Source: a virus
IMG/VR virus record: IMGVR_UViG_3300031673_000040
Coordinates: 1-61,464 of that record
Length of the DNA stretch: 61,464 bases
Direction: 5' to 3' (one strand)
The position numbers and the translations under genes were made by a program. The notes beneath the pieces were generated by a model that had not been told where the DNA came from, made no database searches, and saw nothing but the letters and a program-made list of their open reading frames with translations. Positions 2,975 to 59,441 of this stretch are shown here, piece after piece (positions within the stretch are counted from its first letter, which is position 1; the number at the start of each line of letters is the position of its first letter).

Positions 2975-3445
2975 TTATAGTTGTGCAACAAGATTGTTTG
3001 GTTGTTTTCTTGGTACTTCTTTGTAGAACATGTGCGCGCCTATCCTTACGGTGAATTTCATGCGAGTTGAACGCGCCCATCTGGGATTACTTGTTACAGT
3101 GTGATAATGGTCTGCACCATGCGTTGGGTCTGTGTAGCGCTGGCGGATGAGATGTACAGCCAGTACTCTGATGTTGCGCCAGACATGCCCGGGTCTGGGT
3201 TTCGGGAGATTTTGGTCAGTCCAGGAAAACTGCGCATGTTGGTAGACAATTTCGCAAATCGTTTTGTGCTGGGCATGGGCTCTGTTAAGCGTAACTGCGG
3301 CGACAGCTATTTGTCCTTTGATTGACTGTCCGCGGGCCTCATGGTAAATGTTCTTTGCAAGACAATTCGCTTGATGCTGCGTTGGGTGTGCTTGTGCGGT
3401 TATAGGTAAGAGTGCTAACATTGCGAAACAGTATCGTATGTTCAT
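2975..3445 (-). CDS. Exported SleB-family cell-wall hydrolase (Hydrolase_2-like) with a cleavable signal peptide
   Basis: N-terminus MNIRYCFAMLALLPITAQA-HP is a Sec signal. The core NIYHEARGQS...AVAAVTLNR...QFSW resembles SleB/CwlJ-type hydrolases. Confidence 0.75.
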   Translation of the reverse strand: MNIRYCFAMLALLPITAQAHPTQHQANCLAKNIYHEARGQSIKGQIAVAAVTLNRAHAQHKTICEIVYQHAQFSWTDQNLPKPRPGHVWRNIRVLAVHLIRQRYTDPTHGADHYHTVTSNPRWARSTRMKFTVRIGAHMFYKEVPRKQPNNLVAQL

Positions 3446-3681: not shown

Positions 3682-3740
3682 CTGTCAGGATCCTTTGCTT
3701 ACGTTTTGCCATGTTATACAGGGCTGTGCAAGATGTCAAG

Positions 3741-3802
3741 CTATCTGTTTTTAAATTTGTCTGTTTTTGATTTTGTCTGTTTTTGATTTTGTCTGTTTTT
3801 GA
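3741..3802 (+). repeat. Iteron cluster A: one degenerate unit plus three tandem 16-bp units TTTTGTCTGTTTTTGA
   Basis: Read directly: ctatctgtttttaaa, then tttgtctgtttttga three times. The same motif recurs at 5521-5600, and inverted at 53621-53640. Confidence 0.85.
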
Positions 3803-3919
3803 AAACGGGTGCGGGTGGGTTGTAGTGCGACTGAGATACAACGGAGAAAGGAATTATAACAAAGGCTTCCTTTCTAAATAATCGTACTAATCCCACCTAA
3901 GATAAGGTGGGACAGTAGA

Positions 3920-4129
3920 TTAGTTTTCTCTTATACAGCGATTTGCGGTTGCTTGTTGGTACGCACCAGTTATCGTTGGACGCGTGTATTCAATTGCTGG
4001 GAAAACTCTGTTGAATCTGCCCCAGCCAAACAATCTTGGACTAAGGCATTTTGCGGAATGCAGAGTTGTTGTAAGTATTCCGCCGATTTGACGACCAGTT
4101 GCAATGTCTACTACAATAAAGCGGCTCAT
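3920..4129 (-). CDS. Hypothetical protein (69 aa; start MSRFIVVD)
   Basis: ATGA overlap with the upstream 31-aa ORF. The ORF-track version is 9 codons longer. Confidence 0.4.
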   Translation of the reverse strand: MSRFIVVDIATGRQIGGILTTTLHSAKCLSPRLFGWGRFNRVFPAIEYTRPTITGAYQQATANRCIREN

Positions 4130-4221
4130 GCTACGCCACCATGACGGATAATCCACAAACGCACATACTGGATGCGAATGTGGGCTTGTTGCTGGTAATC
4201 TGCTGCGCGATCGTTTGTCAT
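4126..4221 (-). CDS. Possible small ORF (31 aa)
   Basis: My translation: MTNDRAADYQQQAHIRIQYVRLWIIRHGGVA. Strong SD aaggagag upstream. Its stop overlaps the next ATG. Confidence 0.35.
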   Translation of the reverse strand: MTNDRAADYQQQAHIRIQYVRLWIIRHGGVA

Positions 4222-4231
4222 GTTGCTCTCC

Positions 4232-4315
4232 TTAGATGTGGATGAACAGGAGTACTGCTAACGTAATGGCGATAAGTACACCACCAAGATAGCATTCAAG
4301 ATCATTGCGATTCAT
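4232..4315 (-). CDS. Possible small membrane peptide (27 aa); first gene of the leftward arm
   Basis: My translation: MNRNDLECYLGGVLIAITLAVLLFIHI. SD ggag lies 7 nt upstream. It is the first ORF downstream of promoter 4356-4384. Confidence 0.35.
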   Translation of the reverse strand: MNRNDLECYLGGVLIAITLAVLLFIHI

Positions 4316-4355
4316 TTCATACTCCAAGATAAGACACTAAACTTGTGTCATACAT

Positions 4356-4384
4356 ATTGTTGCACATTGCATAAGGGTATGCAA
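4356..4384 (-). promoter_or_regulatory. Leftward promoter candidate TTGCAT-17-AACAAT, overlapped by the palindrome TTGCATA-AGGG-TATGCAA (4367-4384)
   Basis: Minus-strand reading ttgcat acccttatgcaatgtgc aacaat. A perfect 7-bp inverted repeat overlaps it. A near-identical element lies at 59290-59318. Confidence 0.5.
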
Positions 4385-4585
4385 TAGTCTAACGCGTTTA
4401 TAGTGCATGTATATATGAATGGCTAAAATCTGGCATTTGTGGCGCTGTATATGCACGTTTGGCGCGTTTGCGACCGCTGGTTGATGTAATGGCATGGGCC
4501 AGCAAATCTACTTACTGTTGCGCGTTTAAACAAACGGGAATAATTAGGATTGGTTGCACGGGTTAGCTGAGTGTTACATAATCCA

Positions 4586-4614
4586 TTGACTTAGAATGTG
4601 CGATATGCTTTAAT
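4586..4614 (+). promoter_or_regulatory. Sigma70-like promoter TTGACT-17-TTTAAT firing rightward into ORF-free DNA
   Basis: Read directly: ttgact tagaatgtgcgatatgc tttaat. Near-consensus hexamers with 17-nt spacing. Confidence 0.55.
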
Positions 4615-4664
4615 ACGCAACGCACATCTCCCTGCGCTTGTTCTGTAAGATAAGATATTTATCT

Positions 4665-4691
4665 GTGGTTATGGTGGTTATGGTGGTTTAT
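4665..4691 (+). repeat. Tandem 9-bp repeat GTGGTTATG x3 (third unit GTGGTTTAT)
   Basis: Read directly: gtggttatggtggttatggtggtttat, followed by tagtgggggg. Confidence 0.85.
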
Positions 4692-4891
4692 TAGTGGGGG
4701 GATGGAGCTGAAAATTGCTGTAGTATCAATGGGTTAGAAATGTAGTGTCCTCAAGTTTTATCCTTAGGATGGTCCGGTAAAAGTTTGTTTGTAATCAGTA
4801 GGTTACGTGACAGATTGCCCTGGGAAAACGTCCTGTCAGATTTGCAAATTACATGGAAGAATTGTGGTAAAAAAGCCTTTTAAATCAAAGG

Positions 4892-4918
4892 GCAAGGGGA
4901 TTATTGTCCCTGCTTTTT
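4892..4918 (+). terminator. Rho-independent terminator candidate
   Basis: Stem gcaagggg/tccctgc (one bulge, one G-U pair) followed by ttttt. Confidence 0.4.
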
Positions 4919-4945
4919 GTCGCTATACACGCGGGACGTGTTGTG

Positions 4946-4979
4946 AAAAATTTTTTTTAAAAAGGTCAAATTTTTGAAA
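4946..4979. other. A/T tract (possible DNA unwinding element)
   Basis: Read directly: aaaaattttttttaaaaaggtcaaatttttgaaa, inside the ORF-free repeat region. Confidence 0.4.
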
Positions 4980-5007
4980 GGGCGACGGTTTATTAGGGCG
5001 GGACTGT

Positions 5008-5200
5008 TTCAAGTTGTTGAATGGTAATGACAATCTTACAACGGTTTTTTTGTTTTTGTGGGGAATTTAAAAATCTGTCGCGACTGTTTGTTAGGATAAA
5101 AGTAGTTTAAGTTATTGAATAGTAATGATAATCTGGTGGTGGTTCTTGTTTACGTGTTTTGGGAAATAATCTGCTCTAGTACGCGAACTGTTACAAAGCA
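5008..5200 (+). repeat. Two to three degenerate ~95-bp direct repeats
   Basis: aagttgttgaatggtaatgacaatct...ttttgtggggaat...atctgtcgcgactgtt aligns with aagttattgaatagtaatgataatct...gttttgggaaat...atctgctctagtacgcgaactgtt. A partial third unit (gcgttttgggaagat) follows. Confidence 0.6.
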
Positions 5201-5261
5201 AAGTGTTAGAGCGGAAATGTCTTGCGTTTTGGGAAGATTTATGATAGTAGATTGTGGATTT

Positions 5262-5270
5262 GGGGGGGGG
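5262..5270 (+). repeat. G9 homopolymer followed by GGGTTGTGGGTTG (G-rich block)
   Basis: Read directly: tttgggggggggatt ... gtgggttgtgggttg (5291-5305). Confidence 0.8.
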
Positions 5271-5304
5271 ATTGTGGAGAAGAAGCGGTTGTGGGTTGTG
5301 GGTT

Positions 5305-5318
5305 GCCGGTTGGCGAAT
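5305..5318 (+). repeat. 14-bp repeat GCCGGTTGGCGAAT, copy 1
   Basis: An identical 14-mer lies at 5775-5788. An inverted 11-mer, cgccaaccggc, lies near 6901-6912. Confidence 0.8.
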
Positions 5319-5520
5319 TTGCGGATTGCTTACGTATTAGGAGCTAATTTCATTTTTAAAAACTGTCACGACTTTAATGCCTCTTAGCTGTCGTCAACGA
5401 TTCATTTCAAGAGCGAAGTCATCCTGTACAGAATGCTCGCGTATATAGAAAGGCAGCGCAAACACTGGTCATCGCCAACTGGCAACTGTGCTAACCCAAC
5501 CAGACTCCGCGGAATTTATT

Positions 5521-5625
5521 TTATCTGTTTTCAATCTAAGGTAGACGGAATCTTGTCCCATAGAACTTTTGTCTGTTTTTGATTTTGTCTGTTTTCAATC
5601 TTGAAGACGCGGTATCTTGAAGACG
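5521..5625 (+). repeat. Iteron cluster B (four TCTGTTTT units) plus a 12-bp direct repeat ATCTTGAAGACG x2
   Basis: ttatctgttttcaatct; ttttgtctgtttttga; ttttgtctgttttcaatctt; then atcttgaagacg at 5598-5609 and 5614-5625. Confidence 0.85.
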
Positions 5626-5654
5626 GGAATATAAGCAGACTCTTATGCCATTTT

Positions 5655-5683
5655 ATCGTCACCGGTTGACGATATCTCGTCAC
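5655..5683. promoter_or_regulatory. Overlapping inverted repeats built from TCGTCA/TGACGA half-sites
   Basis: atcgtca-ccggt-tgacgat, followed by gacgatatctcgtcac. Confidence 0.6.
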
Positions 5684-5692
5684 TCGCCAACT

Positions 5693-5736
5693 GTCATCTT
5701 CTAGTCATCTTCTAGTCATCTTTCCGTCATCTATCA
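5693..5736 (+). repeat. Four tandem 11-bp repeats (one helical turn): GTCATCTTCTA x2, GTCATCTTTCC, GTCATCTATCA
   Basis: Read directly. The array is flanked by the TCGTCAC palindromes at 5655-5683 and 5818-5835. Confidence 0.85.
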
Positions 5737-5774
5737 GAAGCGGAATAACCTTACCTATCACTCAACTATTCTCC

Positions 5775-5788
5775 GCCGGTTGGCGAAT
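5775..5788 (+). repeat. 14-bp repeat GCCGGTTGGCGAAT, copy 2
   Basis: Identical to 5305-5318. Confidence 0.8.
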
Positions 5789-5817
5789 GCGAATGCGTCT
5801 TGCTCGCATCTACAGAG

Positions 5818-5835
5818 GTGACGAGATCTCGTCAC
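5818..5835. promoter_or_regulatory. Perfect 18-bp palindrome GTGACGAGATCTCGTCAC (operator-like)
   Basis: Read directly. Related to gacgatatctcgtcac at 5668-5683. Confidence 0.7.
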
Positions 5836-5929
5836 GCGTAAAGACCCACTAACTCAGAAGGGCTTGTAACCCATTGATTCTATTATGCTTTTCTTGAGCA
5901 CCTTCGCCGGCCAGTACCTTACCTAGGTG

Positions 5930-5946
5930 CTAGAAACGCCGTAAAC
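5930..5946 (+). promoter_or_regulatory. Conserved intergenic box, copy 1 (CTAGAAACGCCGTAAAC)
   Basis: Matches the CTAAACGCCGTAAACG box also found at 16374, 30941, 44121 and (degenerate) 49839. All five copies are in the same orientation. Confidence 0.6.
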
Positions 5947-6113
5947 AGCGTTCTGACGCCTGCCGCTACAAGCGCCGCCAAACGGCGGTTCTATTGGTAG
6001 CACTCGCTAACCGAAACAGCATTGGCACGGTCTTTGCTACGTGTGCGCGTTCTTTTAATATACCAGCGCGTTAGACCTTGTTACAATTTGTTACACTTTA
6101 CATGCACAAGACT

Positions 6114-6142
6114 ATAGCATTTTGCATAGGTTTGGGTATAAT
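6114..6142 (+). promoter_or_regulatory. Weak promoter candidate (-10 TATAAT at 6137-6142) for the 6320 gene
   Basis: The -10 hexamer gggtataatgg is perfect, but the -35 is poor. Confidence 0.3.
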
Positions 6143-6319
6143 GGTAACTGTACCTTGTAGCTGAGGTGCCGCCGCCCAGTGGTCTGATACGCGAAGGCTC
6201 GTCGCGTAAACAATGACCTAATCATGGCCGCCGTTGAATTCGGCATATTTACAACCCACGTTGGCAATATCAGGCTGCAATCGTGCAGTCTGCAAAATAA
6301 ATGAAAGTGAGAAATTACC

Positions 6320-6667
6320 ATGAAAAAGACTACCAAAACCGCAGCCCAAGCCGTAACCGTCGCGTTGCCTGTGTCGCCAGAAATGAAGAGCTTAGTCGAG
6401 CAGATTGGCGGCGCTGTTAGCGTACCTGTACCGGCCCACAAGAAATCGGCCAAACAGTTTATTCGCGAGACGTTGTCAGTTGAAGGCGCGAAGTTAACGG
6501 TTGAAGAAATGTGCAAACAGTCAGGCTGTACCCCGGTGAATATTCGTACAATGCTGTCCGACCTGCGTTCGCCAAAGTATGCAGGCAAAGCCGGCGTCTT
6601 TATCACTAAGTCAGTTCGCGACGGTGATAAGACCTACTACATGAAAGCGACACCAGCTGCACAGTAG
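6320..6667 (+). CDS. Small wHTH-like protein, paralogue A of the DLRSPKY family (DUF3489-like architecture)
   Basis: C-terminal domain FIRETL...LTVEEMCKQSG..VNIRTMLSDLRSPKYAGKAG...YYM. It shares this domain with ORFs 57587-58096 and 50350-51039. SD gtgaga upstream. Followed by a strong terminator. Confidence 0.75.
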   Translation: MKKTTKTAAQAVTVALPVSPEMKSLVEQIGGAVSVPVPAHKKSAKQFIRETLSVEGAKLTVEEMCKQSGCTPVNIRTMLSDLRSPKYAGKAGVFITKSVRDGDKTYYMKATPAAQ

Positions 6668-6683
6668 TAAGAACCACGTATCA

Positions 6684-6712
6684 AAAAGCGCACCAATTCG
6701 GTGCGCTTTTTT
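6684..6712 (+). terminator. Rho-independent terminator
   Basis: aaaagcgcacc aattc ggtgcgctttttt: GC-rich stem followed by a T6 run. Confidence 0.85.
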
Positions 6713-7011
6713 ACGACTGCGCATTTTACATAATATAGTATATGCGTTTAAGCAAATAACTATATGCTAATATACGAGTGATAGTGAGTACTCACTGGCA
6801 CACAGCGCACCATTATGGTGCAGACAGGACGGCGGGCCCGTCTCCCCTAGATGACGGCAGAACCCAAGTTTGGTTCCTTATGCAATCTTATGCAAGCAGA
6901 CGCCGCCAACCGGCGCAACCCATTCCCCACTCCAAATTCCACACACGCCACGCCACCTCGCCAACCGTCAATCCAGGACTGCCATTCGGCGAACTCCCAC
7001 AGAACTTTTCC

Positions 7012-7040
7012 CAACACAAAACCTGTCCATGTGTTATAAT
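7012..7040 (+). promoter_or_regulatory. Extended -10 promoter candidate (TGtTATAAT) upstream of terS
   Basis: catgtgttataatggg has TG one nt upstream of a perfect TATAAT. The -35 is poor. Confidence 0.5.
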
Positions 7041-7082
7041 GGGTTTCAGACTGCAAATTCCACGAACGACGAAGAAAATTTT

Positions 7083-7634
7083 ATGGCCCTGCGTTTAAAC
7101 CTGACGAGTGACGAACTTCAAGAACTCTCATCAAAGGAAGAGATCTACCACGCCCGCGAACACTGGAGAGAGCCAACAACACCTACCATAAGAAAAGTCC
7201 TTGATAAGTATCCGGGCTTCCAGCCTAACAACCTGCAAGCGACGCAAGTAGCACAACTCGTTGGCCTTGGCCTGACTGCAAAAGACATCTCAGCATCCTT
7301 ACTGATAGACCCTGTGCTCTTGAAGTTCTACTATAAGCGCGAACTCGAAGTAGGTTCAGCGCAAGTCAATGCAAAGGTCGCCCACGTCGCCCTAAAGATG
7401 GCACTAACTGGAGAAAGCCCGACCATGACGCAATTCTGGCTCAGTAGACGCGCCGGTTGGAAGGAAACGACTGTCACGGAATCAACTGTTGAAGTCCGCG
7501 ATGTCAGTGAAGCACGTAACAAACTTCTTGGCCCAAAGCCGAAACCGGCAATCGAGGGCGAGTACACAGAGGTTGTACTGGATAAAAAAGTCGAACCTTC
7601 GATCGCCGCACCGTCAACGGACACTCGCCAATGA
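7083..7634 (+). CDS. terS: Terminase small subunit candidate (183 aa; internal start MALRLNLT)
   Basis: HTH-like segment LGLTAKDISASLLID and the C-terminal FWLSRRAGWKE motif, which is common in small terminases. Its position upstream of terL fits. The 71-codon N-terminal extension in the ORF track is Pro/Thr/His-rich and implausible. Confidence 0.55.
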   Translation: MALRLNLTSDELQELSSKEEIYHAREHWREPTTPTIRKVLDKYPGFQPNNLQATQVAQLVGLGLTAKDISASLLIDPVLLKFYYKRELEVGSAQVNAKVAHVALKMALTGESPTMTQFWLSRRAGWKETTVTESTVEVRDVSEARNKLLGPKPKPAIEGEYTEVVLDKKVEPSIAAPSTDTRQ

Positions 7635-7903
7635 TAGATCTCGGAGACAACCACTTCGCAACAATCGTGGTGTTCAAAGACGATACACATGCTGCTATTG
7701 AAGTTGCACACAAGACTCCGTCGGGTGCTGACTGTCTCGAGTTCATCGCTATTACAGACTCCGCTTGGTCAAAAGAATTCAAGCCCGGAACGATCACAAC
7801 TTGGGAGCTGTTGTCCAAGGACCCACTGACACTCAGCCCGAGCCTCCTCTGCGGATGCGGGGATCACGGATTCATCCAAAACGGAAAGTGGGTAAAGGCA
7901 TGA
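7631..7903 (+). CDS. DUF6527-like protein, paralogue 1 (90 aa)
   Basis: C-terminal LTLSPSLLCGCGDHGFIQNGKW. ATGA overlap with terS. Confidence 0.55.
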   Translation: MIDLGDNHFATIVVFKDDTHAAIEVAHKTPSGADCLEFIAITDSAWSKEFKPGTITTWELLSKDPLTLSPSLLCGCGDHGFIQNGKWVKA

Positions 7904-8244
7904 GACTCACAGACTTAGAGCCGCGCTGGTTTAGCGTTGGTGGCACAACTGGAATCGCTGGAATTTCGTTTGTATGCCCACACTGCAAAGCATTAGGGAT
8001 GGTAAATCCGGCTCGTCTAGGCGTGCGGATTGACCATGCAACTCCACATATTATTAGTGTTAGTTATGACCACGACATAACCCATGTACCCAAGTCTGAA
8101 CAGGTTTGGCAGATAACTGGTGATGCGCCGACTTTCGATGGGGAGATTCACGGCGGCTTCGATAGCATCTCGCTTACGCCCTCTGTTGACTCCAGTAAAT
8201 CGGGGCACTGGCATGGGTTCGTCAAGAATGGAGAAATAAAGTGA
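7900..8244 (+). CDS. DUF6527-like protein, paralogue 2 (114 aa; start MRLTDLEPRW)
   Basis: FVCPHCK near the N-terminus and C-terminal SLTPSVDSSKSGHWHGFVKNGEI. ATGA overlap with the upstream gene. Confidence 0.55.
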   Translation: MRLTDLEPRWFSVGGTTGIAGISFVCPHCKALGMVNPARLGVRIDHATPHIISVSYDHDITHVPKSEQVWQITGDAPTFDGEIHGGFDSISLTPSVDSSKSGHWHGFVKNGEIK

Positions 8245-8657
8245 CCTGGCCCTGCCGCCTTATTGAGTGGACTGGCGAAACAAAGAAAGCTGACCTGCGG
8301 GTTGGCGATATGTTCTTCGCTCCGCACTATGCGGACGATGTCGGTTACTGGCCCTTTATCTACTCGCGCGAGAAACTCCTCTCAGACTACTACAAGACAT
8401 GGAATAGCGAGCGACGTCCTATACTTATGTGGATGCCCGGGCAGTTTGTTCTGTGTTTGGATGCAATGTGGGGAAGCCCCAAAGGTCTATACGGCGGACA
8501 CATTGTGACAGGTGACGCCCCAAAGATCACTCTTAATGAAGAAATCATATTCGCGGACGTCTACCGCGGCACCCTTGTTGATGGAGTCTTATCGGAAGAT
8601 CTAAATGGTAGAAAATACAGAGACAACGGCGAGTGCGCTACAACCACAAGTTCCTAA
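8241..8657 (+). CDS. Hypothetical protein, possibly a third divergent paralogue (138 aa)
   Basis: GDAPKITLNEEI...YRGTLVDGVL resembles the C-terminal pattern of the two preceding ORFs. Confidence 0.5.
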   Translation: MTWPCRLIEWTGETKKADLRVGDMFFAPHYADDVGYWPFIYSREKLLSDYYKTWNSERRPILMWMPGQFVLCLDAMWGSPKGLYGGHIVTGDAPKITLNEEIIFADVYRGTLVDGVLSEDLNGRKYRDNGECATTTSS

Positions 8658-9981
8658 AGATGATCCAAGCCAGTATAGCGATGCTGAAATCTTTGCTCTG
8701 CTCCCTTATGTCGAGCGCGAAACGAGGATCGCAGGGCTTACAGACGAAGAATGCGCTGACATTCTCTACGATTGGTCGTGGCACTCAAGACCAAACCAGC
8801 GACCGCCAGCAGAATTTGTCGCCGGGCAGAAAACAACCTGGCTTGTCGTCGCAGGACGGGGATTTGGTAAGACGCGTTGCGGAGCTGAATGGGTACGAAG
8901 TAGAATAAAGACGTCCGAATTCGTCAATATCATTGGTGCAACAGCTTCTGACGCCCGTGATATTCAGATTGAAGGCGAATCGGGCATACTTAGGATTTGC
9001 CCGCCAGACGAAAGGCCGGTTTACGTCGCCTCAAAAAGGCAGCTACAATGGCCGAACGGTGCGATAAGCCTTGTTTTCACCGCCGACGAGCCGGAACGCT
9101 TGCGCGGAAAGCAGCACGGAGGCATCTGGGCTGACGAATTGGGTGCTTGGCGGTACGAAGAGGCCTGGGATCAGGCGCAACTTGGCTTGCGGTTAGGTCA
9201 GAACCCACAAGCAGTCGTAACAACAACGCCAAGACCGACGAAATTGGTCAAGAATTTGATGAAAGATGACTCCACTATCATTACGAGAGGGTCAACTTAC
9301 CACAACAGAAGCAACCTGGCGAAGTCATTCTTCTCCCAGATCATTAAAAAGTACGAAGGAACACGTTTAGGCCGGCAAGAACTCATGGCGGAGCTGTTAC
9401 TGGACAACCCAGGCGCTCTGTGGCATCAAGACATGATAGATTCTTTGCGCGTTAGCCAGTATCCAAGCCTTGTTCGCATTGTAACAGCGTTGGATCCGTC
9501 GGTTGATGATGAAGGGGACAAGGATGAGGCCGGCATTGTTGTTGCGGGGATAGACGGAAACGGGCATTGTTACGTTCTGGACGATTTGAGCCTTCACGCA
9601 TCACCGGATAAGTGGGCGAGAGTAGCGATTAACCAAGGGCACCACAAGCATCTTGGAGACAGACTGGTGGCAGAGGTCAACAACGGCGGAGCTCTTGTAG
9701 AAAGCGTACTTAGAACCGTCGACGCAAGCCTACCTTATACTGATGTACGCGCAAGCCGCGGAAAAAGAACACGCGCAGAGCCTATTTCGGCTCTGTATGA
9801 ACAAGGTAGAGTGCATCACGTAGGCTTCTTTCCGATTCTAGAAGACGAACTGTGCAACTGGGATCCGCTTATAGACGTAAAATCACCAAACAGACTAGAT
9901 GCTCTGGTCTGGGCAATAACAGCACTAACAGACCCGAACTTTGACTCGGGCTTAACCTTTGGATCGATAGGAAGAAAATGA
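8605..9981 (+). CDS. terL: Terminase large subunit
   Basis: Walker A VVAGRGFGKTRCG and Walker B-like IWADELGAW. Nuclease-domain acidic motifs ALDPSVDD and AEVNNGG. Confidence 0.9.
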   Translation: MVENTETTASALQPQVPKDDPSQYSDAEIFALLPYVERETRIAGLTDEECADILYDWSWHSRPNQRPPAEFVAGQKTTWLVVAGRGFGKTRCGAEWVRSRIKTSEFVNIIGATASDARDIQIEGESGILRICPPDERPVYVASKRQLQWPNGAISLVFTADEPERLRGKQHGGIWADELGAWRYEEAWDQAQLGLRLGQNPQAVVTTTPRPTKLVKNLMKDDSTIITRGSTYHNRSNLAKSFFSQIIKKYEGTRLGRQELMAELLLDNPGALWHQDMIDSLRVSQYPSLVRIVTALDPSVDDEGDKDEAGIVVAGIDGNGHCYVLDDLSLHASPDKWARVAINQGHHKHLGDRLVAEVNNGGALVESVLRTVDASLPYTDVRASRGKRTRAEPISALYEQGRVHHVGFFPILEDELCNWDPLIDVKSPNRLDALVWAITALTDPNFDSGLTFGSIGRK

Positions 9982-16373: not shown

Positions 16374-16390
16374 CTAAACGCCGTAAACGC
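16374..16390 (+). promoter_or_regulatory. Conserved intergenic box, copy 2 (CTAAACGCCGTAAACGC)
   Basis: Identical over 17 nt to 30941-30957. Similarity continues for about 50 nt (GCGTAGCGCGTCTAA...TTTAGTGG). Confidence 0.65.
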
Positions 16391-16431
16391 AAGCGTAGCG
16401 CGTCTAATAACGGGATTTAGTGGGGTTTATA

Positions 16432-16656
16432 ATGGTATTATGGCGAGTTGGTGGCTATCATCACATAAAAGAGTTCACAGTAGTTGTAAGACCCCATGTG
16501 CTTTTTCCAGATTCATCTGATTGGGTCGATGCCTCTGGAAAACCCATACAGTTCAGTATCGTATTTAAGTATGGTAAGACAGATGACTTACCAAGCAATC
16601 TCGCCCAGTACCTACTGGATGCAAAATTAGCGCAGGAATCAAGACTGATACTTTAA
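16432..16656 (+). CDS. Hypothetical protein (74 aa)
   Basis: ATG at 16432; the ORF track uses GTG at 16420. Confidence 0.45.
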   Translation: MVLWRVGGYHHIKEFTVVVRPHVLFPDSSDWVDASGKPIQFSIVFKYGKTDDLPSNLAQYLLDAKLAQESRLIL

Positions 16657-30940: not shown

Positions 30941-30957
30941 CTAAACGCCGTAAACGC
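30941..30957 (+). promoter_or_regulatory. Conserved intergenic box, copy 3 (CTAAACGCCGTAAACGC)
   Basis: Identical 17-mer to 16374-16390, with about 50 nt of extended similarity. Confidence 0.65.
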
Positions 30958-34361: not shown

Positions 34362-35873
34362 ATGGGTCTGGAAACTGATTTCTTTGAGCTATACGGCGGC
34401 CTTAACAGAGCATACGGCACTTACGTTCAAGGGCAAGTAAACGAAGTCAAGAATAAGATGGAGGGTAAGGCCCAGACCGTTTCGGGTACTTACGAACCTA
34501 GACTGTGGATTTCGCACCTAGCAGGTGACAAGGGCATTGGTGTAATTCCCATCACCGACGAAGCGACCTGCAATTGGGGCGCTATAGACATTGACGTCTA
34601 CCCACTCGATTTAGAAGCACTTGAAAAGAAACTGCAACAACTGAATTTTCCACTCGTTGTTCTCAGAACAAAGAGCGGCGGTGCGCACCTGACCATGTAC
34701 TTGAAGACGTACATCAGCGCGTCAACCGTCAGATCAAAACTCACAGAGTTCAGCGTAGCACTCGGCTATGGCGGTGTTGAGATTTACCCAAAGCAAACGA
34801 AACTTGCAAACGGGCGCGACACAGGCAACTGGCTCAACATGCCCTACTTCAATGCTCTTAAGACAACGCGCTATGCAATAAAAGACGGCGCACCTTTGTC
34901 GGTTGACGAGTTTGTTAAGTACGCAAGATCCAAAGCTATATCAGCAAAGCAACTCGCAGAATTCGAGGTAAAACTAAGCGATACGTTCGCTGACGGTCCG
35001 CCATGCCTGCAGATAATGGCAATGAATGGCGTCCCTGAAGGTGCTCGTAATAACGCGCTTTTCGCCATGGGCGTTTACGCCATGCTGAAATACGACGACG
35101 GCTGGGAAGCAGAGCTAGACTTAATCAATCGTAATGTGATGGTTCCGCCTTTGGCAGTGCGTGACGTTCAGATGATTGGGCGTTCACTTAGCAAGAAGGA
35201 CTACTTTTATCCCTGCAACAAGCCGCCATGCGTAAATCTGTGTAATAAAGATCTGTGCAAGAAACGCAAATTCGGTATAGCAGAACTCGACGCAAAAGAC
35301 CTCGGAATAAACCTTGGCGATCTTATAAAGGTAATGACAGATCCGCCTATTTGGTTTATTGACGTTGAGGGTGTTCGTATCGAGCTAGACACAGAGGATC
35401 TGGTAAGTCAGGAGCGATTTAGGAAACTTGTTGTATCTGCAATTAACAAGCTGCCTGGAAAGATTAAACTCGCTGATTACGAAAAGATGATTCGTGATAA
35501 ACTTGAGAATGTGCAGCTACAGGAAGCACCTGTTGAGTCGGGAACAAAGGGACGGATATCTTTCCATATCGAACAGTTTTTCAATGTCACAACACCTGCT
35601 CGTATTAAAGATGAAATCATCCTAGGTAGGCACTGGACAGATCCAAGCTCAAACGTTACGCATTTCCGTGGTGCGGACTTACTACGCTATCTCGAGATGC
35701 AGGGCTTGCGTTTAGATTCAAGACGCGTTTGGATCCTGCTAAAAGACATAAAGGGTGAGCAAGGAAATCTGAAGGTTAAAGGACGTGATGTACCTACCTG
35801 GAGTCTAGTGTTACGCAACGATGAAAATGAGTCTTTTGAAGTACCTGAAATAACTGGAGATACTACGTTTTGA
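34362..35873 (+). CDS. Primase-polymerase (AEP-type) / replication initiation protein
   Basis: GIGVIPI...NWGAIDIDVY contains the DxD motif. KSGGAHL contains the His motif typical of prim-pol domains. Confidence 0.6.
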   Translation: MGLETDFFELYGGLNRAYGTYVQGQVNEVKNKMEGKAQTVSGTYEPRLWISHLAGDKGIGVIPITDEATCNWGAIDIDVYPLDLEALEKKLQQLNFPLVVLRTKSGGAHLTMYLKTYISASTVRSKLTEFSVALGYGGVEIYPKQTKLANGRDTGNWLNMPYFNALKTTRYAIKDGAPLSVDEFVKYARSKAISAKQLAEFEVKLSDTFADGPPCLQIMAMNGVPEGARNNALFAMGVYAMLKYDDGWEAELDLINRNVMVPPLAVRDVQMIGRSLSKKDYFYPCNKPPCVNLCNKDLCKKRKFGIAELDAKDLGINLGDLIKVMTDPPIWFIDVEGVRIELDTEDLVSQERFRKLVVSAINKLPGKIKLADYEKMIRDKLENVQLQEAPVESGTKGRISFHIEQFFNVTTPARIKDEIILGRHWTDPSSNVTHFRGADLLRYLEMQGLRLDSRRVWILLKDIKGEQGNLKVKGRDVPTWSLVLRNDENESFEVPEITGDTTF

Positions 35874-37403: not shown

Positions 37404-38153
37404 ATGTCAAAAGCATTAGTTGTTTTATCGGGCGGGCAGGACTCCACAACCTGCTTATTCTGGGCCCTGTCACGTTTTGACGAAGTTCATGCAATAACTG
37501 TCAACTACGGTCAAAGACACATAATCGAGATAGAAGCTGCGAAAACTGTTGCTTCAATGGCGAAAACTGCGTCACACGAAATCATTGACCTGCCCGGCGT
37601 ATTGCAATCCGTTTCTCCTCTAACGAGTAATGCACCGCTTGAGAAGTATATTAACGCAGGGCAGATGGCGGAAGTCATTGGTGACAGAGTGGAGCTTACT
37701 TTCGTCCCAATGCGCAACATATTTTTCTTTACACTGGCGATGAACAGGGCTGTTGCACTCGGCTGTGCTGCGCTCGTAACCGGCATTTGTCAAGAAGACA
37801 ACGCAAACTATCCTGATTGCACTGAGCAGTTCCGTAACGACTTTGAATGCACTGCGAATTTCTCATTGGGTAGGAATGAAACTAACTGGATAGAAGTCAT
37901 CGCTCCTCTGATGTTCAAATCCAAGAAGGAAACTGTGCTGCTTGCGCGTGACCTGCCCGGCTGTTGGGAAGCTCTTGCGCACACGCATACGTCGTATGAC
38001 GGTAAGTACCCACCGACGGACATGAACCACTCCAACGTCCTTCGCGCAAAGGGTTTTGAAGATGCTGGCTTGCCTGACCCACTTGTTCTTCGCGCTATAA
38101 AAGAGGGTTTAATGGCGGTTCCGGATACACGGAATTACGATGTCATTGCGTGA
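37404..38153 (+). CDS. queC: 7-cyano-7-deazaguanine synthase (QueC family; atypical C-terminus)
   Basis: PP-loop VVLSGGQDSTTC, YGQRH and YPDC. The C-terminal region HTHTSYDGKYPPTDMNHSNVLRAKGF lacks the Cys cluster. Confidence 0.85.
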   Translation: MSKALVVLSGGQDSTTCLFWALSRFDEVHAITVNYGQRHIIEIEAAKTVASMAKTASHEIIDLPGVLQSVSPLTSNAPLEKYINAGQMAEVIGDRVELTFVPMRNIFFFTLAMNRAVALGCAALVTGICQEDNANYPDCTEQFRNDFECTANFSLGRNETNWIEVIAPLMFKSKKETVLLARDLPGCWEALAHTHTSYDGKYPPTDMNHSNVLRAKGFEDAGLPDPLVLRAIKEGLMAVPDTRNYDVIA

Positions 38154-38506: not shown

Positions 38507-38949
38507 TAACCGCCGAACGTTACCATGACATATCCGCCGGTCATCGCGTGTTTGGGCACGAAAGCAAATGCGCACACCTTCATGGACACAACTATCGTAT
38601 ACACTTCAAGATAGCTGGTGCTCCAACGGAGGACAATCAGGAGGGCTTGGACACTGTGGGTCGTGTTATCGACTTCTCCGTTATCAAAGAAAAACTCTGC
38701 ATGTGGCTCGAAGAGAAGTGGGATCACAAGTTCCTTGCTTGGAAAGAAGACCCATGGGCTGATTACTTGTACCAGATTGACCGTCAAGGCCTTGTCATAA
38801 CGCCGTTTAACCCAACTGCTGAGAACATGGCACACTATCTTATGTTCACTGTCGGACCCGAGCAACTTAAAGGCACTGGTTGCGTTCTCATATCTGTACG
38901 CGTTGAAGAAACGCGTAAGTGTACAGCAACCTCGGAGATATTCGTATGA
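38503..38949 (+). CDS. queD: 6-carboxy-5,6,7,8-tetrahydropterin synthase
   Basis: HRVFGHESKCAHLHGHNY contains the Cys and His-x-His Zn site. The size is typical of QueD/PTPS. Confidence 0.9.
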   Translation: MITAERYHDISAGHRVFGHESKCAHLHGHNYRIHFKIAGAPTEDNQEGLDTVGRVIDFSVIKEKLCMWLEEKWDHKFLAWKEDPWADYLYQIDRQGLVITPFNPTAENMAHYLMFTVGPEQLKGTGCVLISVRVEETRKCTATSEIFV

Positions 38950-39845
38950 GCAAGGAAAAGTACTATCTAAATCATCGTGAGATAGAGCGTCTGGCGTCTG
39001 CGGCAATAGCTCCTCACTTGATTCGTAGGGACTGCCAAACAACTGTTTACGCTGTCCCGAGAGGAGGTGTTCCAGCGGCCTACGCAATGGCCGCCGCCGG
39101 TCTCAATATACGTCTTGTTGACGTACCCGAAGATGCCGAACTGATAGTTGACGACATAATTGCCAGCGGCGCAACACGCGAACGTTATGCGCACCTAAAA
39201 GTACCGTTCGTATCTCTGATAGACCAACGAAAAGAGTCTATTTATTCTGGGAGATGGATTGTCTTTCCGTGGGAAGCAACTGACAAGAAGGATGATTCGT
39301 TTTCCGATAACATAACTCGCCTTTTGCAATTCATTGGCGAAGATCCGAAACGTGGCGGCCTAATTGAAACGCCTCAACGTGTCGTTAAAGCATGGGAAGA
39401 ATGGACGAGTGGCTATGGAAAAGATCCTGCAAAGATCCTTAAGGTATTTGACGACGGCGGCGAGTCTTACGACCAAATCGTCCTTGTCAGAGATATTCCT
39501 TTCTACAGCCATTGCGAACACCATCTCGCTCCTTTTTTCGGTACTGCTCACGTTGGGTACATTCCTAACGGGAGCATTGTTGGTCTTAGTAAGCTGCCTG
39601 AGGTTGTTGATATTTTTGCTAGACGTCTACAGGTACAAGAGCGTCTCACTAATCAGATTGCTGACGCTATTTGGGATAATCTGAAACCCAAAGCAGTGGG
39701 CGTTGTTGTGTCTGCTCGGCACTTGTGCATGGAATCACGGGGCAAGAAAAAGAGCGGTAGTTCCACTGTAACGAGTGCGCTGCGAGGAACAATGCTTACC
39801 GAACCTGACTGTCGTGCGGAGTTTTTCAACTTGATTAAACTGTAA
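38946..39845 (+). CDS. folE: Fusion protein: N-terminal type I phosphoribosyltransferase-like domain + GTP cyclohydrolase I
   Basis: N-terminal part: VPRGGVPAAY...ELIVDDIIASGAT (PRPP loop). C-terminal part: ETPQRVVKAW, FYSHCEHHLAPF and LQVQERLT (GCH-I). ATGA overlap with queD. Confidence 0.85.
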   Translation: MSKEKYYLNHREIERLASAAIAPHLIRRDCQTTVYAVPRGGVPAAYAMAAAGLNIRLVDVPEDAELIVDDIIASGATRERYAHLKVPFVSLIDQRKESIYSGRWIVFPWEATDKKDDSFSDNITRLLQFIGEDPKRGGLIETPQRVVKAWEEWTSGYGKDPAKILKVFDDGGESYDQIVLVRDIPFYSHCEHHLAPFFGTAHVGYIPNGSIVGLSKLPEVVDIFARRLQVQERLTNQIADAIWDNLKPKAVGVVVSARHLCMESRGKKKSGSSTVTSALRGTMLTEPDCRAEFFNLIKL

Positions 39846-44120: not shown

Positions 44121-44137
44121 CTAAAACGCCGTAAACG
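44121..44137 (+). promoter_or_regulatory. Conserved intergenic box, copy 4 (CTAAAACGCCGTAAACG)
   Basis: One extra A relative to copies 2 and 3. Lies 42 nt upstream of the mazG-like ATG. Confidence 0.6.
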
Positions 44138-48966: not shown

Positions 48967-49734
48967 TCATCTTAAATTTAAGATCTTGTGTAGTTGCAGA
49001 GATAGCTTGTGTCCGTGTTTCATGCAGAGGGTCACAGCGAGCTCCACATTCGCTTGCGTAGCAACTCCATCGCGCATGTGGGTAGTAACATCCTCATGTA
49101 CGTAGTACTCTTCCATAGGCTGGAGATACACTTGACGGTTGGCGAGTACTTTCTCGCTAGGCGGCGCCAGTGCTGCGCTCTTCTCACCTGCTTGTGTGTT
49201 CGTTATGGGTATGCCATGCTCTTCTGTATGATCGTCGAATGTCGATATAAGATACTTGTACGCGTCTGCATTTGCTTCAACCCGCGGATGCAACTTGGGT
49301 GTTTTTGGAGACACCACAATCAATGTCTCAAGGCGGTTGCCAAGCTCCGGACGCAGGTCTTCCTCAAGCAAGCTCTCAGGCCATACAGTGCCCGCTGTCT
49401 CAATCTGCACTTGCATTCCGTTCTCGCGTAGAGCACGAATCAATGGGGCTATCTCTTGCATCATTGGCTCGCCGCCGGTTAGCACAACAAGACGGTTACC
49501 AAACTCGATGCAGTCGCTAACGATGTTTTCTACGCTGACAACTGACGACGACTTCGTGTCGAAATCAGTATCACAGAAAGTGCAGCGCAGATTGCAACCG
49601 CCCAAGCGAACAAATGTGGCGGGTGTGCCAGCAAGCGGACCTTCGCCTTGTATGGTTGGGAACAGTTCACGCAGGAGAAGGAACCCTTCTTCTGGCAGGT
49701 GTGACTTCTTAAGTACTGGGTTATTTCCGAACAT
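48967..49734 (-). CDS. queE: 7-carboxy-7-deazaguanine synthase (radical SAM)
   Basis: GGCNLRCTFCDT contains the CxxxCxxC cluster. Also LTGGEP. SD aaggagga upstream. Confidence 0.9.
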   Translation of the reverse strand: MFGNNPVLKKSHLPEEGFLLLRELFPTIQGEGPLAGTPATFVRLGGCNLRCTFCDTDFDTKSSSVVSVENIVSDCIEFGNRLVVLTGGEPMMQEIAPLIRALRENGMQVQIETAGTVWPESLLEEDLRPELGNRLETLIVVSPKTPKLHPRVEANADAYKYLISTFDDHTEEHGIPITNTQAGEKSAALAPPSEKVLANRQVYLQPMEEYYVHEDVTTHMRDGVATQANVELAVTLCMKHGHKLSLQLHKILNLR

Positions 49735-50349: not shown

Positions 50350-51039
50350 TTACTTTGCTTTTTCGGCTTTGGCTGGCTTCGCTGCGGGTGCTGCTTTTGC
50401 TTCTGCAGGCTTGGCTTTGTCCGCTTCAAGTTTGGCAACTGCCGCTTCTGCTGCTTTCTTGGCCTTAACGGCGTCTGCTTCTGCTTTCTTAGCTGCGGCT
50501 GCGGCTTCCTTCGCTTTTTCTGTGTCTGCGGCGAGCTTTTCGGCTTCACCAGTAGACAGGTGTCCGTACATACCATCGGCCAGGCGGGTCAGGTTCAGAA
50601 CGTCGCCGGGCTTGCAGTAGGTTGGGGAACGCAGGTCGCTGATTGCAGTAGTAACCGATACTTTGGTGCCTTCGGTCAGTTTGCAGATGTCGTCAACAGA
50701 GTGACGAGCACCCGGAACAGCGAACAGTTCACGGATCAGGGTTTTGACACCCTTCGTGCGGACTTTCGGTGCTGGCTTTTCCTTTGCTACTTTGACGGGC
50801 TTGCAGGCGATTTCATACGCACGAGCCAGTTGTTCATCGGCGGGCAGGGTTGCGACATCAGCGTTGGTTGCAGCGATAGCCAAACGTACATCTTCAGCCA
50901 GCGCAGCGAACTCATCAGCGTTTGTAACGACGACGCCACCGTGTTCCTTGACGAACTCAGCACCCTTTTCCGCCGAGGCGACGAACTGGGTAACACGTTT
51001 TGCGGTAGTGTCGATAACGAGCACTTTATTTTTTGCCAT
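50350..51039 (-). CDS. wHTH-like DLRSP-family protein (paralogue C) with a histone H1/AlgP-like Lys/Ala/Pro tail
   Basis: Start MAKNKVLV with SD aaggag. Domain LIRELF...SVDDICKLTEG..VSVTTAISDLRSPTY. Tail KAKPAEAKAAPAAKPAKAEKAK. An in-frame upstream ATG at 51270 is an alternative start. Confidence 0.7.
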   Translation of the reverse strand: MAKNKVLVIDTTAKRVTQFVASAEKGAEFVKEHGGVVVTNADEFAALAEDVRLAIAATNADVATLPADEQLARAYEIACKPVKVAKEKPAPKVRTKGVKTLIRELFAVPGARHSVDDICKLTEGTKVSVTTAISDLRSPTYCKPGDVLNLTRLADGMYGHLSTGEAEKLAADTEKAKEAAAAAKKAEADAVKAKKAAEAAVAKLEADKAKPAEAKAAPAAKPAKAEKAK

Positions 51040-51274
51040 GATACAGATCTCCTTTATGAGGTTAATTGCTATTGGGTCTCCACCATGTAGTTCTCCTGCT
51101 TTTGCAAACGAGTCGACAATGTGGTGGAGTTCACTGTCTTCTCTTATACACCGTTGCATTCTTGGAGGATCAAGAATAATTTGAATAGAGGGTTTACGTA
51201 CGATTGTGAAGCCACCTATCCTCAGGTAGTACTTCCTTCCTGAATCGTAAAACGCGTAAAATTCCATCATTTGT

Positions 51275-59289: not shown

Positions 59290-59318
59290 AGTGTGCCACA
59301 TTGCATAAGGATATGCAA
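59290..59318 (-). promoter_or_regulatory. Second copy of the leftward promoter/operator element (palindrome TTGCATA-AGGA-TATGCAA at 59301-59318)
   Basis: Minus-strand reading: ttgcat atccttatgcaatgtgg cacact. Matches the 4356-4384 element at 22 of 24 positions. Confidence 0.45.
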
Positions 59319-59441
59319 GCATCTTATGTAAATAAATTGTATATCGCGTAACCAGCGACGAATGCAGCTCCAGCACAAAAGACGTAGAACAGAAACATCC
59401 CTGTGTTGTAGATGTCATCGTCGAACTGGTCGTCGGGATCT

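Follow-up and report, generated by a model that had tools for sequence, protein, structure and literature searches.

Positions 3682-6319 of the window (the whole stretch of 61,464 nucleotides that was analysed) are the non-coding control centre, hereafter the hub, of an uncultivated phage with a genome of ~61.3 kb, and lie between its two divergent arms. The contig closes into a circle with a 118-nt overlap. An earlier sequence-only reading had described a gene-free region at 4316-6319; this is far from accidental and was borne out by an independent gene caller run on the same contig, which made zero calls between 3681 and 6320, but the gene-poor region in fact extends leftward past 4316, to 3682. 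Three small ORFs at 3920-4315 on the minus strand (69, 31 and 27 aa), read from the ORF list and the sequence, have Shine-Dalgarno sequences and coupled stop/start codons; they were left uncalled by the metagenome gene caller, matched nothing in Pfam or PHROG and gave no tblastx match in relatives, and so are not conserved there. The remaining hub ORFs (5115-5387, 4807-4977, 4337-4495, 5433-5582 and 5531-5683) had no Pfam match, and the sole PHROG match was marginal (E = 0.0094, one 90-aa ORF). As noted previously, ORF 5115-5387 crosses a G-run; the window has nine residues there (G9) and ENA's version of this contig has eight (G8), so that the two assemblies differ by a frameshift.

Intact genes at this position in relatives, which the sequence-only reading had pointed to as the sign of degraded coding sequence, were sought by tblastx against the hubs of four relatives, and nothing but the flanking winged-helix gene was recovered. 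All relatives have gene-poor gaps of 0.9-2.7 kb at the same position. Decay of former genes (pseudogenes or remnants of lost genes) would fit the unusual length of the hub for a phage intergenic region and the one marginal PHROG match of a 90-aa ORF, yet it is very improbable in view of these gaps, the lack of translated similarity to the relatives and of any blastn match among GenBank phages, the retention of the non-coding architecture itself in relative L012, and the dense packing of statistically significant repeats and named binding motifs.

The centre of the hub is a G+T-rich core (4620-5400), delimited by composition extremes, repeats and comparison with L012. Its plus strand contains the genome's G+T maximum (0.68, at 5042-5341), as the earlier description of a G+T-rich strand had implied, and the C+A-rich stretch that follows, at 6897-7196, is the genome's minimum (0.34). 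The core opens with (GTGGTTATG)x3, scored as 2.7 copies with 100% matches at 4665-4688, followed by G6, an IHF site (4724-4736) and a hairpin with a T-run (4885-4920). The A/T tract at 4940-4979, which ranks first for AT content in all 61 kb at window sizes of both 30 and 40 nt, then precedes two degenerate ~88-bp repeats (4982-5066 and 5080-5167; 67% identity, E = 2e-6). The last part holds ATTGTGGA-G9-ATTGTGGA with the G9 run at 5262-5270, GGTTGTG repeats beside it (x2.7), TCGCCAACCG (5307-5316, minus strand) and the box AGCTGTCGT (5386-5394). The tandem repeat, A/T tract, long repeat and G9 run had all been listed before and were recovered independently. G6, T8 and G9 are the genome's only G/C runs of at least 6 or A/T runs of at least 8, all of them in the hub, which also holds the best tandem repeats of the genome. 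Both copies of GCCGGTTGGCGAAT reported earlier are exact, and this element belongs to a TCGCCAACYG family that has eight exact copies where 0.22 would be expected, and the interval 5307-6967 accounts for five of these. L012 shows the same order of core elements at 7770-8400 (by eye and from shared k-mers).

It had been suggested that the region encodes non-coding RNAs, and two candidates can be drawn in the core (about 4620-5400): a ~300-nt transcript that would start from the 4586 promoter and end in the hairpin and T-run (4885-4920), and a G/U-rich antisense RNA pairing with the C+A-rich TerS leader. The stretch 4621-4920 is bracketed by a promoter-like site and a terminator-like hairpin, 5290-5320 has a short inverted similarity to 6903-6930, and the core architecture is kept in L012. 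One or more such RNAs are nevertheless improbable: Rfam gave no match at the gathering threshold or even at E <= 1, folding energies were no better than those of shuffles (z = -0.56, -0.81 and -0.49), the inverted similarity covers only about 27 nt (z = 3), and the relatives are too few for a covariation test.

The iteron cluster described earlier was located at 5519-5598, and further copies of its 16-bp unit form another cluster outside the region first described. The latter, cluster 1 (3744-3802, plus strand), consists of 3.7 copies of TCTGTTTTTGATTTTG and has the best TRF score of the genome (104); cluster 2, delimited by repeat and pattern searches at 5515-5633 (plus strand), consists of three copies of TTTTRTCTGTTTT and adjoining GAAGACG..ATCTTG repeats. 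The two clusters share a 29-nt exact match and together account for all six occurrences of TTTTGTCTGTTTT when up to one mismatch is allowed, with none elsewhere at that stringency. The iteron core GTTTTCAATCT is common to the window and relative L026. The AT-richest windows of the genome are 4940-4979 and 5032-5131. DnaA boxes with at most one mismatch number 17 in 11.6 kb of hubs vs 15 in 122.8 kb elsewhere, a 12-fold enrichment (p = 1.4e-10) that is uncorrected for the differing composition of non-coding DNA; perfect boxes are present in the hubs of L012, L063 and L065, and a search of the window for perfect boxes returned one-mismatch boxes only.

Iterons, the AT tract, IHF sites and DnaA boxes together make an origin function of the hub plausible. 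Iteron-type origins assisted by DnaA and IHF include pSC101, P1 oriR, R6K gamma and P4 (ori plus crr), and the hub is like them in its clustered direct repeats, AT-rich tract, IHF sites, DnaA(-like) boxes and distant second iteron cluster, the 1.77-kb separation of the clusters being reminiscent of the P4 ori/crr arrangement. It is unlike them in that no Rep-type initiator was found by Pfam/PHROGs and the DnaA boxes of the window are imperfect. A stronger version of this idea is that the hub is primarily a theta-type origin, at which a phage initiator (e.g. the AEP primase encoded at 34362-35873, or a winged-helix protein) would occupy the iterons, IHF and DnaA would aid melting of the AT-rich tract at 4940-5130, and the promoters would be secondary or would help to activate the origin by transcription, perhaps by way of an R-loop on the G-rich non-template strand. 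We hold this to be a distinct if tentative possibility, compatible with the main explanation given below and not exclusive of it. Besides the features just listed, a GC skew of up to +0.8 downstream of the candidate promoter at 4586 and the conservation of the ordered G+T-rich core in L012 speak for it; the imperfect boxes, the uncorrected enrichment test, the lack of a clear inflection of cumulative GC skew at the hub, and the failure of the Pfam/PHROG search to identify an initiator or a recognisable helicase loader next to the hub speak against it.

IHF consensus sites (consensus WATCAANNNNTTR) were located by regex scan, and two of the six in the window lie in the hub, with a common core ATCAATGGGTTA: one at 4724-4736 (plus strand), the other, AATCAATGGGTTA, at 5867-5879 (minus strand). 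The latter site is preceded by a GTCAC/TGACG half-site array (5656-5835) with dyads at 5656-5672, 5666-5683 and 5818-5835. The last two correspond to the TCGTCA palindromes of the sequence-only reading, and its phased 11-bp repeats were resolved as four GTCATCT copies at 5693-5736. Of the window's 13 TCGTCAC heptamers, four are crowded into 180 bp here, and two 17-18-bp palindromes are 94% alike. The array is a candidate enhancer or operator for the downstream promoters.

A predicted sigma-54 (-24/-12) promoter, TGGCACGGTCTTTGCT at 6023-6038 (plus strand), heads the rightward arm and is the best-supported part of the hub. It reads TGGCACG-N4-TTGCT, a textbook match at 12 of 12 specified consensus positions with GG and GC doublets 10 nt apart; TGGCACG-N4-TTGCW has no other exact match in the 61-kb window. 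Transcription from sigma-54 promoters starts about 12 nt past the GC doublet; the predicted start here is near 6049. The first rightward gene encodes a winged-helix regulator (6320-6667) and is followed by TerS (7083-7634) and TerL (8605-9981), with a terminator and a second leader before the terminase and structural genes. The motif recurs 40-110 nt upstream of the homologous winged-helix gene in five other phage lineages (L026, L008, L012, L063 and L065), where the 4-nt spacer varies and the flanking elements are invariant, and L008, L012, L026 and L063 also carry opposite-strand copies that point to the other arm. In 678 kb of non-redundant sequence, of which 11.6 kb are hubs, 15 of the 17 matches with at most one mismatch fall within hubs (binomial p = 4e-25), as do all seven exact matches (7/7), against 0.003 exact matches expected there.

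The same motif could in principle be the site of a phage protein, for example the winged-helix protein, that resembles the sigma-54 consensus by chance. It is confined to phages with the winged-helix gene and always adjoins that gene, the protein keeps an invariant recognition helix in the different lineages, and L008 has tandem copies 35-45 nt apart, which is unusual for promoters. We consider such a coincidence highly unlikely: all 12 consensus positions are matched while the spacer is free, a hallmark of bipartite recognition at -24/-12; the element lacks the dyad symmetry that is usual for the sites of winged-helix dimers; and the copies are oriented towards genes with IHF sites beside them, as at classical sigma-54 promoters.

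Classical enhancer-dependent promoters (nifH, Pu of the TOL plasmid, pspA, glnHp2) have upstream dyads, an IHF site and then GG-N10-GC. The hub shows the same order of candidate elements, and in L026, L008, L012, L063 and L065 comparable GTCAC/TGACG dyads likewise precede the sigma-54 motif. An exact IHF consensus is found close upstream of the motif in L008, L012, L063 and L065, and these four have cores identical or nearly identical to that of the window's two hub sites (ATCAATGGGTTA) beside the -24 element; in the hubs of L012, L008 and L065 the IHF core AATCAAYGGGTTA immediately precedes that element. L026 has one-mismatch IHF-like sites only (by eye). The order is most canonical in L065, L063, L008 and L012, where the IHF site abuts the -24 element, and the full arrangement of enhancer and IHF site is canonical in L065 and L063. 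In the window, candidate dyads and an IHF site are present with long, less canonical spacing, the IHF site lying ~145 nt upstream of -24 and the gene start 282 nt downstream. Unlike classical sigma-54 promoters, the one in the window also has other promoter types interleaved and would use an activator that is not phage-encoded: the activator motifs GAFTGA and ESELFGH are absent from all six frames of the window, and the activator would thus be a host enhancer-binding protein. L014 and L064 have consensus sigma-70 promoters at the corresponding position instead, so sigma-54 control of the winged-helix gene is not obligatory.

Of the interleaved elements, a phage-specific promoter module (5934-5997, plus strand) begins with the box AAACGCCGTAAAC and has a degenerate -10 (TATTGG) ~45 nt later. 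The single box reported near 5930 was placed at 5934-5946 and proved to be one of four exact 13-mers, all on the plus strand, in the direction of the right arm (5934, 16376, 30943 and 44124), against 1.6 expected even with two mismatches allowed; alignment of the four modules showed that at 16376 the box is followed by TATAATGG. The long leader of the winged-helix gene (6050-6319, plus strand) contains a TTGTTACAAT repeat, a half-operator TTGCATA (6122), a TATAATGG -10 element (6137-6144) and a conserved pre-start motif ATGAAAGTGAG (6301-6311), the last of which is present in L026 and L064 too.

At the left edge, the operator/promoter element TTGCATAYCCTTATGCAATGTG (4367-4389, minus strand) stands at the head of the leftward arm and contains the palindrome TTGCATA-N4-TATGCAA. 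The operator palindrome (4367-4384) named in the sequence-only reading is real, and a second copy with 22 of 23 positions identical lies at 59301-59323 in another leftward intergenic region. The two sigma-70 promoters proposed in that reading fared less well: the rightward one, TTGACT-17-TTTAAT with a TG extension, can be read in the sequence at 4586-4614 (plus strand), but a consensus scan picks up neither. The scan misses 4586-4614 because its -10 hexamer is without the conserved A at position 2, and the 8 sigma-70 promoter-like sites that it reports across the region do not exceed expectation (6.7). The proposal of a regulatory hub is supported and can now be specified; the accompanying statement that no element matches a nameable motif family did not hold, since sigma-54 -24/-12, IHF consensus and DnaA-box-like sites all match.

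A packaging role had also been considered, in which the hub would be a cos/pac site, TerS, aided by IHF as at lambda cosB, would recognise the 16-bp repeat units or else the TCGCCAACYG sites, and the genome ends would lie near the G-rich block 5260-5330. In its favour, TerS and TerL lie 1-2 kb downstream of the hub, in which direct repeats of 16 bp occur together with IHF sites; TerS has a TCGCCAACCG copy 125 nt ahead of it; and two partial assemblies, made independently, stop at 5287 (L001) and at a point corresponding to ~5330 (L026). The breaks near 5287 and ~5330, however, coincide with the homopolymer that varies between assemblies (G8 vs G9) and that the 5287 break adjoins, and the same Logan sample breaks at ~3785 too, inside the repeated iterons of cluster 1; these are ordinary assembly break points and not evidence of genome ends. 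Further, the contig is circular (118-nt overlap) with no terminal repeat found, and a gene and a terminator lie between the hub and TerS. Examination of the contig ends at 5287, ~5330 and ~3785 gave no support for a packaging site in the hub, which we regard as unlikely. In lambda, the OL/OR operators flank divergent early promoters and cosB comprises R sites plus IHF. The hub is like lambda in being a compact control region between divergent arms with repeated operators, and in having 16-bp repeats and IHF sites upstream of terminase; it is unlike lambda in having no sequence or protein homology and in being ~ten times longer than lambda's intergenic control sites.

The explanation that we favour, and consider probable, is that the hub is a control centre with a compound sigma-54 promoter at right, a leftward operator/promoter at left and, most likely, the replication origin in its centre. 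The right third (5650-6150) would be the compound promoter for the first rightward gene, that of the small winged-helix DNA-binding protein. Host sigma-54 RNA polymerase would sit as a closed complex on the core at 6023-6038 and would fire only once an ATP-dependent activator, presumably a host enhancer-binding protein docked on the upstream GTCAC/TGACG dyad array (5656-5835), makes contact by DNA looping helped by IHF on 5867-5879. The phage-specific promoter (box at 5934) and the TATAATGG sigma-70 promoter (6137) would overlap with it as extra activator- or repressor-controlled inputs. The operator/promoter of the leftward arm would occupy the left edge (4317-4620), perhaps joined there by a sigma-70 promoter that faces right. 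The centre (4620-5650), together with the iterons at 3744-3802, would be a site of protein assembly, marked by two iteron clusters, the genome's most readily melting tract, IHF sites and DnaA-like boxes; most likely it serves as the origin of replication, possibly together with leftward promoter modules. The lack of genes and the motifs, with their statistics and conservation, are observations; binding by sigma-54, IHF and DnaA, the identity of the proteins on the dyads and iterons, and a replication start in the hub are inferences drawn from them.

Sigma-54 promoters need an ATP-driven activator to fire and are for that reason among the tightest bacterial switches. They are rare in phages, and one experimental precedent was found in the literature searched: Pseudomonas phage YuA (Yuavirus), a tailed phage without its own RNA polymerase, whose development depends on host sigma-54 and in which sigma-54 (-24/-12) promoters serve morphogenesis genes (PMC5053324, PMC10914365). 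YuA is not a close relative, and all genes shown in its GenBank record (1-50,000) are on one strand. The record annotates three -24/-12 promoters, all inside the structural module, and none matches TGGCACG-N4-TTGCW with at most two mismatches on the coding strand. The hub, in contrast, has a near-perfect motif between divergent arms, in both directions in relatives, with IHF sites and dyads; sigma-54 use is experimentally supported for YuA and predicted here from sequence. A clade with near-perfect sigma-54/IHF promoters at the point of divergence would show the strategy to be more widespread. The hub would offer a clean system for asking which activator a phage relies on, how late genes are timed without a phage sigma factor or RNA polymerase, and whether origin firing is coupled to transcription. 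It also illustrates that long 'empty' regions of metagenomic phages can be decoded by motif architecture across very distant, non-aligning relatives.

More speculatively, and with little probability in our estimation, throughout this clade of uncultivated phages the switch between arms may be tied to sigma-54 RNA polymerase of the host by a single IHF-bent enhancer inside the origin. The activator may then be a stress-activated host enhancer-binding protein serving as an infection sensor or, more radically, the clade's invariant winged-helix protein bound to the GTCAC dyads, which would amount to a non-AAA+ route to sigma-54 activation. In that case the -24/-12 copies that relatives carry in tandem and in divergent orientation would double as a sink for sigma-54 holoenzyme. 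On the leftward side of the hub, the promoter scan placed a promoter-like TTGACA-17-TAACAT at 3739-3711 (minus strand), with iteron cluster 1 just upstream.

The hub, a gene-free region (4316-6319) between the divergent leftward and rightward arms, is on sequence grounds best filed as a phage control and probable origin region, in which the switch would include canonical sigma-54/IHF promoters. The core of interest is this conserved sigma-54/IHF promoter architecture of an uncultivated phage clade, whose mechanism we infer. The sequence-only reading of the region held up overall: its listed elements were all located where it had placed them, and the absence of genes, the composition and the repeats were likewise recovered.

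The window, a metagenomic phage genome of 61,464 bases, corresponds to ENA contig ERZ27256810 k141_2874615 (61,486 bp), to which it is identical save for one base in a G-run, and a Logan contig from another sample (SRR8554505) matched it at 100% identity across 11.4 kb. Its first 118 bases are the same as its last 118, so the assembly is circular. The rightward arm begins at 6320 with the gene of a 115-aa protein (6320-6667), followed in order by TerS (7083-7634, phrog_309), TerL (8605-9981), portal and structural genes, then by a replication and DNA modification module (SNF2 helicase, AEP primase, UvrD helicase, QueC, GTP cyclohydrolase I, ligase and PolA), and ends at ~48.9 kb. The leftward arm runs from ~49.0 kb through the contig junction to 3442, and the hub therefore lies exactly where the arms diverge. 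TerL has only ~50% identity to its best phage matches, and blastn of the hub DNA against 50,697 GenBank phages, in near and distant modes, returned no match. No prophage copy was found in the genome collection, which gave no host assignment. Genes for QueC, GTP cyclohydrolase I and a radical-SAM (QueE-like) protein are located at 37404-38153, 38919-39845 and 48967-49734; together they suggest synthesis of a 7-deazaguanine DNA modification by the phage, which, if true, could bear on the hub's G-rich tracts. Two leftward-arm genes on the minus strand, at 1993-2418 and 2975-3445, encode a peptide deformylase (PF01327) and a SleB-type cell-wall hydrolase (PF07486), and the arm also carries the gene of an RHH protein (1530-1709).

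An independent gene caller made zero calls between 3681 and 6320, in agreement with the claim that the hub is free of genes. Hub ORFs had no match in Pfam and one marginal match in PHROG, and a tblastx comparison with the matching regions in four relatives recovered the flanking 115-aa gene only, with no intact genes in the relatives' hubs. The sole sizeable ORF (5115-5387) crosses a G-run with nine Gs (G9) in the window and eight (G8) in the ENA copy, a difference that could be sequencing error or real slipped-strand variation; the run (5262-5270) is flanked by direct repeats ATTGTGGA. Of the proposed borders, the gene-free stretch stood and the left limit did not, the gene-poor region truly starting at 3682. 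A second cluster of the 16-bp iteron found in the hub (5515-5633) lies at 3744-3802, beyond the limit first drawn, and the minus strand of 3920-4315 carries three tightly coupled small leftward ORFs of 27 aa (a hydrophobic peptide), 31 aa and 69 aa, all with good Shine-Dalgarno sequences; these ORFs were missed by the gene callers and are absent from the relatives. AT content peaks genome-wide in the A/T tract (4940-4979), in windows of both 30 and 40 nt, and all three long homopolymer runs of the genome (G6, T8, G9) fall within the hub. The G+T content of the plus strand reaches its genome maximum at 5042-5341 (0.68 vs a mean of 0.50) and its genome minimum in the C+A-rich stretch ahead of TerS. 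The best TRF arrays of the genome are located in the hub, and TCGCCAACYG, the core of the previously noted GCCGGTTGGCGAAT, occurs in 8 copies where 0.22 are expected.

The 115-aa protein has few homologs (23 clusters in 5.8 billion proteins), and their contigs share a synteny of left arm, gene-poor gap (0.9-2.7 kb), homolog, TerS, TerL and portal. The closest relative, contig L026, has a TerL 82% identical to that of the window and stops inside the hub. Searches of IMG/VR with the 115-aa protein, TerS and TerL, and a family-alignment search of IMG/VR and 185,579 genomes, yielded no relative near enough for hub alignment. Because the hubs are unalignable as DNA, they were compared motif by motif. 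TerL itself varies in length, with 778 aa in L026 (3150-5486), 756 aa in L008 (11501-13771) and 458 aa in the window; the ~320 extra residues past the Walker region in L026 resemble an intein that carries a LAGLIDADG-type endonuclease.

Repeats in the related contigs L008 and L012 have AAGCAAG-N4-CGTGCCA in common, in either orientation, the reverse complement of which is the sigma-54 promoter consensus TGGCACG-N4-TTGCW. This consensus has one perfect match in the window, at 6023-6038 (+), 282 nt upstream of the 115-aa gene. Motifs with at most one mismatch occur on the same strand 40-110 nt upstream of the homolog in five related contigs (L026, L008, L012, L063 and L065), with extra copies in the opposite direction in L008, L012, L026 and L063; the aligned motifs vary freely in the 4-nt spacer and are constant in the -24 and -12 elements. 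Within 678 kb of non-redundant fetched sequence, of which hubs make up 11.6 kb, 15 of the 17 motif matches, and 7 of the 7 exact ones, lay in hubs (binomial p = 4e-25; 0.003 exact matches expected). Two further related contigs, L014 and L064, carry consensus sigma-70 promoters at the homologous position in place of the sigma-54 motif. No AAA+ activator with a GAFTGA motif was found encoded in the window, which implies an activator from the host. L008 additionally has 3-4 tandem sigma-54-type promoter copies at 9453-9614, spaced by 35-45 nt and all directed toward the left arm, and a divergent pair of the same type around an inverted IHF-site pair (9772/9857). The box TGGCACACAGCGCACC, which follows the winged-helix gene (that of the 115-aa protein), was rejected as a sigma-54 promoter, its GG-GC spacing being wrong. 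A box TGGCACA(CA)GCG followed by a short hairpin, between the terminator of the winged-helix gene and the C+A-rich TerS leader, is kept in the five lineages examined (window 6797-6825, L026 ~2013, L012 ~10494, L014 ~2283, L008 ~10712); its GG-GC spacing does not fit sigma-54.

Near the sigma-54 promoters are sites that fit the IHF consensus WATCAANNNNTTR and have a core AATCAAYGGGTTA in common, at 5867-5879 (-) and 4724-4736 (+) in the window and immediately upstream of the -24 element in L065, L063, L008 and L012. Farther upstream, every sigma-54 lineage carries GTCAC/TGACG dyads; those of the window (5656-5672, 5666-5683 and 5818-5835) have four phased 11-bp GTCATCT repeats among them. Dyads, then an IHF site, then a -24/-12 element is the classical layout of an enhancer-dependent sigma-54 promoter. 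The 115-aa protein is a winged helix with an invariant recognition helix and two paralogs in the left arm (57587-58096 and 50350-51270). A sequence search of the PDB with the family gave no match, and a fold search returned generic ArsR/SmtB/MarR-like winged helices only; we infer that the protein is a candidate binder of the conserved GTCAC half-sites. A motif ATGAAAGTGAG (6301-6311 in the window) stands 7-9 nt ahead of the start codons of the winged-helix gene and neighbouring small genes, and is kept in L026 (1134, 1541, 1828) and L064 (~1874); the motif differs from a classical Shine-Dalgarno sequence, and its frame in the window is not that of the winged-helix gene.

Phages seldom use host sigma-54; an established case is Pseudomonas phage YuA (PMC5053324; PMC10914365), whose GenBank record has three -24/-12 promoters annotated within the structural module. 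The window phage and YuA are not close relatives and differ in genome layout, and the sigma-54 promoters of YuA are much farther from consensus. No other phage with sigma-54 promoters was found in the literature searched.

As for the broader interpretation of the region, its role as a regulatory hub stood, an origin is plausible only, and the suggested packaging and non-coding RNA roles were unsupported. The ordered architecture of the G+T-rich core (4620-5400) is kept in L012, even though the protein of its flanking gene is only ~50% identical. In order, this architecture consists of three short direct repeats, TGGTCC(G/A)GGTAAAA, the A/T tract and two long direct repeats, then G-runs with repeated GCCGG(T/C)GGTTG, AGGAGC(A/T)AAT and AGCTGTCGT, the last also present in L026. 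Given this identical element order, the core is a conserved non-coding module. Folding of both strands was not significant, and tRNA, tmRNA and Rfam searches were without match. Per kb, the clade hubs hold 12-fold more DnaA boxes (one mismatch at most) than the remainder of these loci does (17 in 11.6 kb vs 15 in 122.8 kb; p = 1.4e-10), a significance that holds at clade level only, the window alone showing no genome-wide enrichment. Perfect boxes occur in L012, L063 and L065, and the window has one-mismatch boxes only. Cumulative GC skew was uninformative. The combination of iterons with an AT tract, IHF sites and DnaA(-like) boxes is the hallmark of origins of the theta type, and we tentatively regard such an origin, at somewhat under an even chance, as the likeliest role of the hub centre. 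An alternative or additional reading is that the core holds leftward promoter modules, since a hub minus-strand block of ~27-50 nt resembles the region upstream of TerS (z ~3) and the two repeats of 88 bp contain leftward promoter-like hexamers; the inverted paralogy with the TerS upstream region was too short, at that z, to support nut/put-like leaders. Regarding packaging, contigs of other assemblies break at 5287 and at the equivalent of ~5330, and the sample with the 5287 break also breaks at ~3785. Because the latter falls within repeated iterons and 5287 adjoins the variable homopolymer, these breaks are no evidence for termini, and contig ends were rejected as such.

Two sigma-70 promoters proposed for the hub were not picked up by a consensus scan, which gave no enrichment relative to shuffled sequence. 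The box AAACGCCGTAAAC at 5934-5946 has four exact copies, all on the plus strand in right-arm intergenic regions (also 16376-16435, 30943-30955 and 44124-44136), each followed ~40 nt on by a -10-like element (TATAATGG at 16376). It resembles a class of phage-specific promoters that depend on an activator, the copies at 16376, 30943 and 44124 being probable middle/late promoters that precede a structural operon, the replication module and a further operon downstream. In IMG/VR, an exact 16-mer of this promoter box gave single chance-like matches only. The palindrome at 4367-4384 lies within a 23-nt element that has a second copy in another leftward intergenic region (59301-59323), and this element is a putative left-arm operator/promoter. 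Half-sites of the left-arm operator TTGCATA..TATGCAA also occur as two direct CTTATGCAAT copies in the TerS leader (6877-6897) and once at 6122, so the left-arm repressor may also touch the right arm.
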